Shown: piece by piece, positions 36,680 to 39,850 of the stretch | Position numbering within the stretch: the first letter of the stretch is position 1 | Layout: the number at the start of each line of letters is the position of its first letter | Assembly: GCA_965369885.1 (NCBI GenBank) | Contig: CBDUSV010000001.1 | Location: 603 to 64,602 of the forward strand | Origin: an uncultured bacterium | GTDB lineage: Bacteria > Pseudomonadota > Alphaproteobacteria > SMXQ01 | Length of the DNA: 64,000 nt | Direction: 5' to 3' | Notes under the pieces: generated by a model | The model's database searches: none | Told to the model about the DNA's origin: nothing | What the model saw: the letters and a program-made list of their open reading frames with translations, nothing else | Made by a program: the position numbers and the translations under genes

Positions 36680-36717
36680 GATCGCGCTGATGAAAAGAAG
36701 TTTTTTAAGATTAACAT

Positions 36718-36757
36718 TGTTCCCCAAGGGTAGCTATTGTAGCGTTCCCAAAGGGGT
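36718..36757 (+). promoter_or_regulatory. Operator-like arrangement upstream of the Irr-like gene
   Basis: Direct repeats (GTTCCCCAAGGG and GTTCCCAAAGGGG) flank a palindrome (GCTA-ttg-TAGC). Confidence 0.3.
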
Positions 36758-36801
36758 TATTTTGGGGATTGAATCGACTGCGTGTTGAAGGGTAAATAGC
36801 C

Positions 36802-37221
36802 GTGGATCGTCCTTATAGTCATATCCTGGATCGTCTCAAGATGGCGGGCCTGCGCCCGACCCGTCAACGCCTGGCGCTCGCCAAATTGTTGTTCGATGGC
36901 GGCCAACGTCATGTCACGGCGGAGCAACTCCATAGCGAGGCGATAGGCCAAGGCATCCGGGTGTCCCTCGCCACCGTCTACAACACCCTCCACCAGTTCA
37001 CCACGGCGGATTTTCTGCGTGAGATCGTCGTCGATTCGGGGCGGTCCTATTTCGACACCAACACCACCGACCACTATCACTTCTTTTTCGAAGATACCCG
37101 TGAACTCAAGGATATTTCCAAGGATGCCGTGAGCTTCGCCCATCTGCCGAAGCCTCCCAAGGGCACCAACGTAAAATGCGTCGATGTGGTCATCCGCGTC
37201 GAAAATTCCCGAAATTCCTGA
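36802..37221 (+). CDS. Fur family transcriptional regulator, Irr/PerR-like
   Basis: The protein has a Fur-type winged helix and an H-Y-H motif (TDHYHFFFED) in place of the canonical HHDH. It lies upstream of rubrerythrin and an ICE-type box. The start is either 36802 or ATG 36841. Confidence 0.65.
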   Translation: MDRPYSHILDRLKMAGLRPTRQRLALAKLLFDGGQRHVTAEQLHSEAIGQGIRVSLATVYNTLHQFTTADFLREIVVDSGRSYFDTNTTDHYHFFFEDTRELKDISKDAVSFAHLPKPPKGTNVKCVDVVIRVENSRNS

Positions 37222-37256
37222 GCATTTCCTACCGGCCGAAAACGCCGTAAAGTTAG

Positions 37257-37273
37257 TTTAGAGGCGTTCTAAA
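37257..37273 (+). promoter_or_regulatory. Irr-box / iron control element (ICE)-like operator
   Basis: The sequence TTTAGAG-gcg-TTCTAAA matches the alphaproteobacterial ICE consensus TTTAGAA-N3-TTCTAAA at 16 of 17 positions. Confidence 0.55.
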
Positions 37274-37295
37274 TTATTGACTCGCAGTGTTGATC

Positions 37296-37314
37296 GGTCC
37301 ATATAGTATGGACC
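37296..37314 (+). promoter_or_regulatory. Perfect inverted repeat, candidate second operator upstream of rubrerythrin
   Basis: The sequence GGTCCATA-tag-TATGGACC has two 8-bp arms with no mismatches. Confidence 0.4.
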
Positions 37315-37383
37315 AGGGCTTTATGGCGTAGACCGATCCGATTCCGAGAACCAAACCATTTCAATGCGTAAAGGAGAATGAAA

Positions 37384-37800
37384 ATGGCGTCCTTGAAAGA
37401 CAGCAAGACCGAAGAAAATCTGAAGGCCGCGTTTGCCGGTGAATCCCAGGCCAACCGCCGCTATCTGTATTTCGCCCAGAAGGCGGATGTTGAAGGCTAC
37501 AACGATGTATCAGCGGTGTTCCGGTCCACCGCCGAAGGCGAGACCGGACATGCCCATGGCCATCTCGAATATCTCGAAGAGACCGGCGATCCCGCCACCG
37601 GCGAGCCCATCGGCCCGACCTCCGACAATCTCAAGGCCGCGGTTGCCGGCGAAACCCACGAATACACCAACATGTATCCCGACATGGCCAAGACCGCGCG
37701 GGAAGAAGGTTTCGACGAAATCGCCGACTGGTTCGAGACCCTCGCCAAGGCCGAGAAGTCCCATGCCGGCCGCTTCCAAAAGGCGTTGGACACGCTCTAA
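37384..37800 (+). CDS. Rubrerythrin-like diiron protein (ferritin-like domain only, no rubredoxin tail)
   Basis: The protein shows paired E-x-x-H diiron motifs (ESQANRRY…[10 protein letters not shown]… and [11 protein letters not shown]…EKSHAGRF). The ATG at 37384 is 7 nt after an AGGAG Shine-Dalgarno. Confidence 0.8.
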
Positions 37801-37898
37801 GAACGAAAGACCAAGTCTATTGATTGTGAAGAGGGGGGCGCAGATGCCCCCCTTCTTGTCAGTTCCCATCGCCACGGACGGTGAACCGAGAGGGTGAC

Positions 37899-39260
37899 AT
37901 GGTTGAAGGTGGCCTCAAGGCGCCGGTGCGCCATCCGCTCGATTGGCAGAACCCGGATTTCTTCGATGGGGATTTGCTCGACGCCGAATTGCGCCGGGTG
38001 TTCGACATCTGTCACGGCTGCCGGCGCTGCTTTAACTTATGCGACAGTTTTCCGCGCCTGTTCGATCTCATCGACGATTCAGATACCGGCGAGCTCGATT
38101 CGGTCGAGAGCCGGGATTTCGCGCCCGTCATCGACGCCTGCACCCTGTGTGACATGTGTTTCATGACCAAGTGCCCCTATGTGCCGCCCCATGAGTTCAA
38201 TCTCGATTTCCCTCACCTCATGTTGCGCGCCCGCGCCATTGATTTTGCCCGCGGCAAGGTTGGCTTCACCGCCCGCCAAATGACCGAGACCGACCGCAAT
38301 GGGCGTCTTGCTAGGTTTGCGGCGCCGCTGTTCAATTGGGCAACCCGGCGCGGCAACTGGCTGGTGCGGCCGATCCTGGAACTTATCGCCTCCATCCACC
38401 GCGATGTGGAACTGCCGCGTTTCCAGGCCGAGACCCTGATGGCGCGGGCCAGGCTCGGGGCTAGGGAAATTGACCGCACTGCCCCCGCCCAAGGCCGCAA
38501 GGCGGTGATCTTCGCCACCTGTTTCACCAATTACAACAACCCCAAGGCCGGCATGGCGGCGCTGGGCGTCTTGGCCAAGAACGGTATCGCGGCCGAGATC
38601 TCCTATCCCGGCTGCTGCGCCATGCCCCAGCTCGAACATGGCGATCTTGACCGGGTTGCCGGCCAGGCGCGCAAGGTGGCGGCCCATTTCAAGGACCATA
38701 TCGCCCAGGGCTATGACGTCATCGCCCTGGTGCCGTCCTGCGCCCTGATGCTCAAATTCGAATGGCCTTTGTTGTTGCCGGGTGACGAGGATGTCTTACG
38801 ACTCGCCGCCGCGACCCGCGATATCTGTGAATATGTCGTGGACATCGCCGCCAATGAAGGCCTGGCGGCGGGGCTTGCGCCCATCGACGGCGGTGTTTCG
38901 CTCCACATGGCCTGCCATGCCAGGGCCCAGAATATGGGCCACAAGGCGGCGGACATGCTGCGCCTGATCCCCGGCATGGTGCCGGACGTGGTGGAGCGCT
39001 GCTCGGGCCATGGCGGCTCGCTGGGGATTACCAAGGACTATTTCGAGACCGCGGTGAAGCTTTGCCAGCCGGTGGCGAAGCGCGCCGCCGGGCATGACAA
39101 CACTCATTTCTGTTCCGAATGCCCCTTGGCCGCCAAGCATGTGGTCCAGTGCATGGAAAGCGTGAATGGGGACGCCACCGGGACCAAAGAACTGAGCCCC
39201 AGCCATCCCATCGAGATCCTGGCCCAGGCCTACGGCATTGATCCGGACGGCACGCGGTGA
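37899..39260 (+). CDS. Fe-S oxidoreductase, HdrD/GlpC-like (2x[4Fe-4S] ferredoxin domain plus two cysteine-rich CCG domains)
   Basis: The protein has CxxCxxC…CP motifs (CHGCRRCFNLCDSFP, CTLCDMCFMTKCPY) and CCG-type motifs (YPGCCAMPQ, CSGHGGS, FCSECP). A GAGAGGG Shine-Dalgarno precedes ATG 37899. Confidence 0.7.
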   Translation: MVEGGLKAPVRHPLDWQNPDFFDGDLLDAELRRVFDICHGCRRCFNLCDSFPRLFDLIDDSDTGELDSVESRDFAPVIDACTLCDMCFMTKCPYVPPHEFNLDFPHLMLRARAIDFARGKVGFTARQMTETDRNGRLARFAAPLFNWATRRGNWLVRPILELIASIHRDVELPRFQAETLMARARLGAREIDRTAPAQGRKAVIFATCFTNYNNPKAGMAALGVLAKNGIAAEISYPGCCAMPQLEHGDLDRVAGQARKVAAHFKDHIAQGYDVIALVPSCALMLKFEWPLLLPGDEDVLRLAAATRDICEYVVDIAANEGLAAGLAPIDGGVSLHMACHARAQNMGHKAADMLRLIPGMVPDVVERCSGHGGSLGITKDYFETAVKLCQPVAKRAAGHDNTHFCSECPLAAKHVVQCMESVNGDATGTKELSPSHPIEILAQAYGIDPDGTR

Positions 39261-39850
39261 CAGCCTTGCCCCACCTCATCACCCGGGCCGACATCATGGA
39301 TATGGAGGCCTACGTCAAGGTCCGCGATGGGCGGCGTGCGCGCATCATCGAGATCAAACGCTTACGCCGTGTCGCCGTCGGGCCTTTCGCCACGTTCTTT
39401 TTTGAGAGTTTCGACACCATGTGGCATCAGATCCACGAGATGCTCTATGTTGAGAAGGGTGGTGAGGACCAGATCGAAGGCGAGCTCGAGGCCTACAACC
39501 CGCTGATCCCCAAGGGCCGCGAGCTGGTGGCGACATTGATGTTCGAGATCGCCGATCCGGAACACCGCCTGCGCGCCCTGGCCGGGCTCGGCGGTGTCGA
39601 GCACACGGTCAGCATTAGCATCGATGGTGTGGAGATTGCCGCCCAACCCGAAACCGACTTGGAACGCACCACCGCCGAAGGCAAAACCTCGGCGGTCCAT
39701 TTCCTGCGCTTTGCCCTATCGCCGGACGCGGCCGATAAATTCAAAACCCCGGATGCGCGGGTGGTGTTGGCCATCGGTCACGGGAACTATGCCCACATGG
39801 CGGTGTTGCCGGAACAAGTTCGCGCCGCGCTCGCCACCGACCTCGACTAA
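39257..39850 (+). CDS. DUF3501 family protein
   Basis: The 197-aa gene overlaps the Fe-S protein stop by 4 nt. This family is typically found next to CCG-domain Fe-S proteins and rubrerythrin. Confidence 0.5.
   Translation: MTALPHLITRADIMDMEAYVKVRDGRRARIIEIKRLRRVAVGPFATFFFESFDTMWHQIHEMLYVEKGGEDQIEGELEAYNPLIPKGRELVATLMFEIADPEHRLRALAGLGGVEHTVSISIDGVEIAAQPETDLERTTAEGKTSAVHFLRFALSPDAADKFKTPDARVVLAIGHGNYAHMAVLPEQVRAALATDLD

Follow-up and report, generated by a model that had tools for sequence, protein, structure and literature searches.

Organization and Conservation of the Locus

The stretch of DNA analysed here, referred to as the window throughout this paper, comprises 64,000 nucleotides (nt) of an uncultured alphaproteobacterium (GTDB lineage SMXQ01; GenBank assembly GCA_965369885.1, contig CBDUSV010000001.1, positions 603 to 64,602 of the forward strand), and the region of interest in it contains four genes on one strand: irr, rbr, rfo and the gene of a DUF3501 protein. 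The first gene, irr (36802..37221, plus strand; 139 aa, GTG start), encodes the haem-responsive Fur-family regulator Irr. It is followed by an Irr-box or iron control element (ICE), TTTAGAGGCGTTCTAAA (37257..37273), with one mismatch to TTTAGAA-N3-TTCTAAA, and by a predicted sigma-70 promoter of rbr (37277..37305, plus strand). The rbr gene (37384..37800, plus strand; 138 aa) encodes a rubredoxin-less 'aerobic-type' rubrerythrin of family PF02915; its open reading frame (ORF) also opens at ATG 37378 (140 aa), but the start at 37384 is better spaced from AAGGAG. A GC-rich stem-loop with a 9 bp stem and a 6-nt loop (37831..37854, plus strand), after which comes UUCUUGUCAGUU, separates rbr from rfo (37899..39260, plus strand), the gene of a 453-aa GlpC/HdrD/EtfD-like Fe-S protein. 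The DUF3501 gene (39257..39850, plus strand; 197 aa; PF12007) begins with a GTG that overlaps the rfo stop codon by 4 nt (GTGA). An Rfam scan of 35000-40600 returned nothing credible. Judged by its sequence, the locus represents the aerobic-type rubrerythrin system (Rbr, RFO and DUF3501) in an alphaproteobacterial version, with Irr encoded directly upstream; the predicted gene identities and the putative regulatory link both have good support.

The 'aerobic-type' rubrerythrin lineage and its co-localised, co-occurring DUF3501 and RFO partners were reported by Cardenas, Quatrini and Holmes in 2016 under the name RBR-DUF3501-RFO; all three genes were found in 185 of 4461 complete genomes, DUF3501-RFO fusions were found in Nitrosomonas, and RFO was proposed to make up for the lost rubredoxin domain (PMC5114695). 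The trio was later found in Andalucia (Andalucia godoyi) and other protists, where it was predicted to be mitochondrial (Gray et al., 2020; PMC7050145), and a 2025 preprint on the rubrerythrin BpRbr restated the electron-partner hypothesis (PMC12154734). On the regulatory side, Rodionov et al. (2006) predicted minimal Irr regulons in Rhodospirillum rubrum, Magnetospirillum and Pelagibacter, which consisted only of a cytochrome c peroxidase gene or a rubrerythrin-like gene (PMC1698941). The gene trio and its control by Irr are thus both already in the literature, and the description of the system as undescribed in the original prediction, made from the window's sequence, has to be withdrawn. 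Its statement that the trio lacks an assigned biochemical function holds for RFO and DUF3501, on which a literature search found no experiment, but not for rubredoxin-less Rbr homologues, whose peroxidase activity has been measured. The papers on the aerobic-type system (PMC5114695, PMC12154734, PMC7050145) do not discuss regulation by irr or an Irr-box, whereas in the window, as in at least 62 related alphaproteobacterial genomes, the cluster lies behind irr and an Irr-box promoter; the order here is rbr-rfo-DUF3501, with a hairpin after rbr.

Related loci were collected by scanning a genome collection with the DUF3501 protein. The 80 loci obtained all belong to Alphaproteobacteria (Rhodospirillales, Magnetovibrio, Azospirillum, Thalassospiraceae, Stellaceae, Kiloniellales, Parvibaculaceae and SAR116), and the nearest relative in the collection is the metagenome-assembled genome 'Alphaproteobacteria bacterium BS3bin.40', with 82% DUF3501 identity. 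A distant DUF3501 context, L081, ends at a contig edge and gave no information. Adjacency was counted only in loci with enough flanking sequence, and in these the order irr-rbr-rfo-DUF3501 hardly varies: the next gene upstream of DUF3501 is rfo in 71/71 loci, that upstream of rfo is rbr in 67/68, and that upstream of rbr is irr in 62/64. Together with the 185/4461 genomes of the earlier survey (PMC5114695), the first two of these counts bear out the expectation that the trio co-occurs, and does so far beyond chance.

The overlap of rfo with DUF3501 has its counterpart in the related loci, where the gap between the two genes has a median of about 4 nt. The rbr-rfo spacer is 98 nt long in the window and 55-263 nt (median 120) across loci. 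In the window, it holds the stem-loop at 37831-37854, followed by UUCUUGUC, and its minimum free energy is -36.1 kcal/mol (z = -2.47). A perfect GC hairpin of at least 6 bp is present in this spacer in 44/70 related loci, often about 20-40 nt past the rbr stop codon, and T-runs follow several of these hairpins. The stem-loop after rbr is therefore a candidate partial terminator or 3' stabiliser. The proposal that the genes form one operon holds only in part: rfo and DUF3501 are tightly coupled, while rbr stands 98 nt away behind a stable hairpin that recurs in 44 of the 70 loci. The simplest reading of this arrangement would be that Irr controls one promoter and that the hairpin, by attenuation or stabilisation, raises Rbr over its partners.

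The Regulator Irr and Its Predicted Binding Site

Scores of the regulator against the NCBIfam models exceed the cut-offs of IrrA (203.5 bits, cut-off 150) and Irr (182.2 bits, cut-off 170) and lie far below those of PerRB (68.6 bits, cut-off 250) and Fur (47.5 bits, cut-off 146); the protein also matches Pfam FUR with 69 bits. In an alignment with 63 orthologues, H91 and H93 of the HxH motif (D-H91-Y-H93-F) are invariant, and the region reads HHH in most orthologues. The protein has a single Cys (C126), which is not conserved among the orthologues, and has no CxxC pair. Because the Irr and IrrA cut-offs are passed, the HxH motif is invariant and CxxC is absent, the regulator is, by its sequence features, Irr and not Zur or PerR. 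The original prediction of an Irr-like protein with an H-Y-H motif is thereby upheld, and the canonical Zur or PerR that it had named as the alternative falls away. No Cys-Pro haem regulatory motif was seen on reading the Irr sequence, which places it nearer to the R. leguminosarum type than to the B. japonicum degradation type. It was reported that apo-Irr binds the ICE and that, in Irr proteins without a haem regulatory motif, haem at the HxH motif abolishes DNA binding (review PMC7762939). The locus has in common with the known Irr/ICE regulon of Alphaproteobacteria (Rudolph 2006; PMC1698941; PMC3413700) the HxH regulator family, the 17-bp palindrome, and targets that are iron-containing, peroxide-related proteins.

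The Irr-box starts 36 nt after the irr stop codon and ends 3 nt before the TTGACT hexamer of the promoter. At a threshold of three mismatches, the 64-kb window contains 3 matches to the Irr-box where 0.28 are expected, and none of 100 shuffles reaches 3. The same threshold is satisfied in 53 of the 68 usable irr-rbr spacers (best match per spacer: 0 mismatches in 4, 1 in 13, 2 in 10 and 3 in 26), so that 17 show at most one mismatch. In the remaining 985 kb of the related loci, no site has fewer than two mismatches; 30 sites have 2-3, and these are mostly located upstream of irr. The box is retained in L075 and L077 although irr is not adjacent there. Thus, the near-consensus box that had been noted between the regulator and rubrerythrin is a genuine, positionally conserved ICE, at which binding of Irr is predicted.

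Some loci depart from the common arrangement. In L014, where rbr is missing, a perfect Irr-box (6404-6420) stands directly before rfo, and an extra ICE-like site is found between rbr and rfo in L015 (6593-6609) and L054 (1872-1888). These three loci hint that rfo-DUF3501 may be able to stand under its own Irr control. Upstream of irr, within about 170 nt, ICE-like sites with at most three mismatches occur in about 17 of about 65 loci, including L005, L007, L013, L019, L030, L036, L041, L044, L058, L059, L063, L066, L068, L072 and L080. Since about 0.14 would be expected, this excess over background suggests that Irr is autoregulated in a subset of genomes. In the window, no ICE-like site lies directly upstream of irr.

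Three further observations were made on ICE-like sequences. In a sub-group of loci (L035, L040, L044, L056, L057, L060, L061 and L074; L035, L056 and L061 are 7-8 Mb chromosome-level assemblies), two overlapping ICE-like sites, TTGAGAATnAnTCTCAAATnATTCTAAA, stand directly before a TTGACC -35 hexamer, about 190-200 nt before rbr and together with a leader that is much longer. Within the DUF3501 coding sequence of the window, the ICE-like TTTCGAAAnnTTCGAnA (39398-39414) falls on the codons of a conserved F-F/Y-F-E motif and recurs at the equivalent place in L018, L046, L059, L065 and L073; such matches are most likely by-products of coding constraints and not operators. The top Irr-box candidate of the whole window is ATTAGAATTATTTTAAA (35200-35216), which scores 29 bits against 22 for the rbr box with a matrix derived from the 53 orthologous boxes, and which is followed by TTGCCT-18-TAACAT in the same box/-35 layout as at rbr. 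It lies upstream of a gene (35270-36679) for a 469-aa nitronate-monooxygenase-like flavoprotein with a C-terminal CxxCxxxC, which sits between pnp and irr in about 27/80 related loci. The site was rejected as a conserved Irr-box, for it is not kept upstream of 25 orthologues of this gene (best 5-8 mismatches).

The Predicted rbr Promoter and the Probable Sign of Regulation

The predicted promoter consists of a -35 hexamer TTGACT (37277-37282) and a -10 hexamer CATATA (37300-37305) with a spacer of 17 nt. The transcription start is predicted close to 37312; about 39 nt separate it from the end of the box, the centre of which lies about 48 nt upstream. The region from the box to the rbr start was aligned for 69 sequences (68 loci and the window). 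A TTGA[CA]N hexamer begins 1-7 nt (mode 3-4) after the ICE in 53/69 sequences, and is TTGACN in 52 of the 53; in 39 of the 53 it is followed 16-19 nt later (mode 17) by an xATAxT hexamer, most commonly CATATT. A stricter consensus promoter scan of the window did not call the rbr promoter. A perfect 8-bp inverted repeat over the predicted -10, GGTCCATA-TAG-TATGGACC (37296-37314), was considered as a second operator or structured leader. It was rejected as a conserved element because it is common only to the window and its closest relative L001, and because no excess of structure was found: over 53 loci, the mean z is -0.30 for the 40 nt around the -10 and -0.29 for the 40 nt that follow.

The sign of regulation is quite probably repression when iron or haem is low, with expression when iron is sufficient. 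This view is based on the position of the box, which abuts a consensus-like -35, on the iron cost of the products, and on R. sphaeroides ccpA, where the distance from box to start is the same and an irr mutation causes mild de-repression (PMC3413700). The arrangement differs from that of the Irr-repressed genes of B. japonicum, in which box and start site overlap. The opposite sign is conceivable, in that Irr bound about 48 nt upstream of the start would recruit RNA polymerase and the cluster would be induced in iron limitation, for example against accompanying oxidative stress. It was reported that direct activation by Irr is common and that the position of the ICE sets the sign of control (PMC7762939); the box lies upstream of the core promoter and not over it, and rbr of Pelagibacter ubique, a predicted Irr target, is up 1.57-fold under iron limitation. 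However, a -35 as close to consensus as this one, with a usable -10 at 17 nt, argues against the need for an activator, and with only 3-4 nt between the box and the -35, a bound dimer would collide with sigma region 4. In addition to ccpA, other iron-rich targets are repressed by Irr, among them mbfA, a rubrerythrin-domain gene that in R. leguminosarum and B. japonicum is a direct target of repression when iron is low (PMC1698941). Activation by Irr is therefore considered unlikely.

The Rubredoxin-Less Rubrerythrin

Rbr matches PF02915 with 104 bits over residues 13-136 of 140, and is related to the B. pseudomallei Rbr structures 9ONM and 4DI0 (E = 3e-70) and to sulerythrin 1J30 (E = 3.5e-51). 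Its ExxH metal motifs are identical to those of the known structures in the alignment, and it contains no Cys and no rubredoxin domain. These features, together with the adjacent DUF3501 and RFO genes, are those of an aerobic-type rubrerythrin. Among such proteins, sulerythrin has a measured peroxidase activity, and ferriperoxin of Hydrogenobacter thermophilus is an FNR/NADPH-dependent hydroperoxide reductase that is required for aerobic growth (PMC3317640). Classical rubrerythrins (D. vulgaris, P. furiosus) share with Rbr the di-iron four-helix bundle, the peroxidase chemistry and an adjoining Fur-family regulator gene. They differ in that they carry a C-terminal rubredoxin domain, which is absent here, where the fold is of the domain-swapped dimer type, and in that their operons are linked to Fur or PerR whereas the regulator here is the haem-sensing Irr; electron input in the present system presumably occurs via RFO/DUF3501.

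A function in iron handling instead of peroxide removal can also be considered. Rbr would then be a ferroxidase or iron buffer, and RFO/DUF3501 would act in iron release or metallation, with DUF3501 as an iron chaperone. The presence of bfr and mbfA in Irr regulons offers a parallel; set against the peroxidase chemistry of the Rbr homologues, this explanation is regarded as quite unlikely.

The Fe-S Protein RFO

RFO has two ferredoxin-type motifs with invariant cysteines (C38/41/44/48 and C81/84/87/92) and two CCG-type domains, as had been proposed, but both CCG motifs turned out to be degenerate, and the Pfam CCG family is undetected. In the first CCG domain, the invariant cysteines are C208, C239-C240 and C281, with CCAMP here and CCGMP in relatives, and SCALM replaces CxxC. 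The second has C339, C368 (followed by S369) and C408, again invariant, with an invariant CSGHGG, and has ECPLA at the place of CxxC. The second Cys of the terminal CxxC is thus absent in both domains. The best family match is GlpC (PRK11168, 162.4 bits, cut-off 278; TIGR03379, 80 bits, cut-off 279.9). With scores below these cut-offs and no GlpA/GlpB-type protein among the flanking ORFs scanned against Pfam, RFO is not placed in GlpC. In the Pfam scan no family was matched at E<0.01; only weak Fer4 appeared at E<10, and PF02754 (CCG) was absent even at that level. An identical 453-aa protein is present in a public database.

Sequence and profile searches of the PDB gave no match for RFO, and matches were obtained by fold search alone: EtfD of Mycobacterium smegmatis (9OJN; score 22.9, 352 residues aligned), HdrB2 (8RVU_B; 19.8) and 3KWL (16.1). 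The overall fold, a ferredoxin module with two [4Fe-4S] sites joined to two CCG domains, agrees with that of HdrB/HdrD. Relative to the EtfD/HdrD/HdrB/GlpC family, RFO differs in having no membrane or haem-b domain (no transmembrane-like segment was found in the protein) and no partner cytochrome or flavoprotein gene nearby.

The original prediction raised the idea of a peroxide-linked disulfide or thiol reductase. In this case RFO would act by the chemistry of heterodisulfide reductases and link the conversion between thiols and disulfides to the reduction of peroxide by Rbr, either as a thiol-driven peroxidase or as a peroxide-linked disulfide reductase. The ferredoxin-CCG fold is compatible with such a role, but the cysteines are not: catalytic HdrB uses five Cys per CCG domain, and the electron wire in the two CCG domains of EtfD is formed by a linear [3Fe-4S] cluster with 4 Cys and a non-cubane [4Fe-4S] cluster with 5 Cys and His, which is not catalytic (PMC13083937). 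RFO has 4 + 3 Cys, compared with 5 + 5 in HdrB and 4 + 5(+His) in EtfD, and neither of its domains keeps the CXnCCGXmCXXC of catalytic HdrB/HdrD. With the terminal CxxC incomplete in both, RFO does not appear to be of the catalytic heterodisulfide-reductase type. The invariant CSGHGG of the second domain, the failure of the Pfam CCG model to detect RFO, and the fact that the best structural match, EtfD, uses its altered CCG sites for electron transfer and not for catalysis (PMC13083937) all count against the idea, which is very unlikely. Based on these sequence features, an electron-transfer role with unusual centres is more likely.

The DUF3501 Protein

The last protein of the cluster matches PF12007 with 202.7 bits and is a homologue, with the same fold, of the B. 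pseudomallei protein 3FJV (E = 1e-33), a solved structure to which no function is assigned. At 50% identity, the family falls into about 3,265 clusters. Residues R23, F49, E61, P85, E97, L108 and F149 are invariant family-wide, and E50, Q58, E76, Y80, R104, H175 and Y178 are at least 90% conserved; the conserved surface of the protein is rich in carboxylate, His and Tyr.

It is extremely improbable that RFO and DUF3501 form a separate GlpC/LutA/GlcF-like dehydrogenase subunit pair of unknown substrate that merely adjoins rbr: the rbr-rfo spacer is long, with a hairpin and in some loci a T-run, and the closest sequence families of RFO are dehydrogenase subunits (GlpC, LdhH, GlcF), but rbr and rfo adjoin in all but one of the 68 loci, the genes co-occur almost exclusively with one another across the 4461 genomes and form fusions (PMC5114695), they are co-distributed in eukaryotes where they are unlinked (PMC7050145), and among the adjoining ORFs and domain matches, no catalytic subunit of the flavoprotein kind (GlpA/B, LutB/C, GlcD/E) was noticed.

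Proposed Mechanism

Taken together, the cluster is best explained as an Irr-repressed system in which the peroxidase Rbr is re-reduced by RFO with DUF3501, a model that as a whole is held with moderate confidence and judged rather probable. When iron and haem are scarce, haem-free Irr would bind the box and block RNA polymerase, and this repression would spare the cell about 2 Fe for each Rbr and several Fe-S clusters for each RFO. Haem, once available, would bind the HxH motif, Irr would leave the DNA, and the promoter would fire. The stem-loop after rbr may attenuate read-through or stabilise a short transcript, so that Rbr is made in excess, and RFO and DUF3501 would be made together by translational coupling. 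Rbr would then reduce H2O2 or organic hydroperoxides at its di-iron site, and soluble RFO, which would hold two cubane [4Fe-4S] sites and, in its CCG domains, two atypical centres, would re-reduce Rbr together with DUF3501, replacing the rubredoxin domain.

The partner role of RFO and DUF3501 in the re-reduction of Rbr, for which the chances appear about even, is suggested by the genome-wide co-occurrence, the natural DUF3501-RFO fusions, the coherent distribution in eukaryotes, the tiny rfo-DUF3501 gaps, and the match of the RFO fold to the EtfD electron wire. This role has already been hypothesised in print, where the cluster chemistry, the electron donor and the role of DUF3501 are not addressed. 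A more specific version is tentatively put forward: RFO and DUF3501 may constitute a dedicated reductase module for rubredoxin-less rubrerythrins, in which degenerate CCG centres (4-Cys and 3-Cys/His, unlike those of HdrB or EtfD) pass electrons from a respiratory-type donor (quinol, electron-transfer flavoprotein or similar) to the di-iron site. If true, it would represent a new peroxidase electron-transfer chain that extends from Crenarchaeota to protist mitochondria and is tied to Irr in Alphaproteobacteria.

Several points weigh against the model. On the regulatory side, the rise of Pelagibacter rbr in iron limitation is the opposite of what simple repression by Irr predicts, an ICE centred near -48 could serve activation, as is common for Irr (PMC7762939), and read-through of the hairpin after rbr is assumed. 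On the biochemical side, ferriperoxin turned over in vitro with FNR alone and no RFO (PMC3317640), and Thermoproteales have Rbr and DUF3501 without RFO (PMC5114695), so that RFO is not universally required; DUF3501 itself has no Cys and no redox-cofactor motif, and its fold gives no functional assignment.

The comparison suggests that the rubrerythrin system, and not iron uptake, is the ancestral core Irr target in Rhodospirillales-like Alphaproteobacteria, and it carries the 2006 prediction of an Irr-controlled rubrerythrin gene from few genomes to more than 60. For its lineage the cluster is an ordinary one, and trio and control were both known. What remains of interest is how closely irr is linked to the rubrerythrin gene across these Alphaproteobacteria, and the biochemistry of RFO and DUF3501, which are widespread and always accompany an antioxidant enzyme that at least one bacterium needs for aerobic growth. 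Handles for experiments are provided by the Irr-box/-35 promoter, the probable attenuator after rbr, the rfo-DUF3501 coupling, the invariant Cys/His set of RFO and the conserved surface of DUF3501.

Flanking Genes

Convergent to the DUF3501 gene, the minus strand of 39860-41733 encodes an SH3-domain protein, a DsrE2-like sulfur-carrier-type protein and a ThiF/MoeB-type adenylyltransferase, which have no apparent link to the rubrerythrin cluster. The SH3-domain protein is kept at this place after DUF3501 in most of the related loci.

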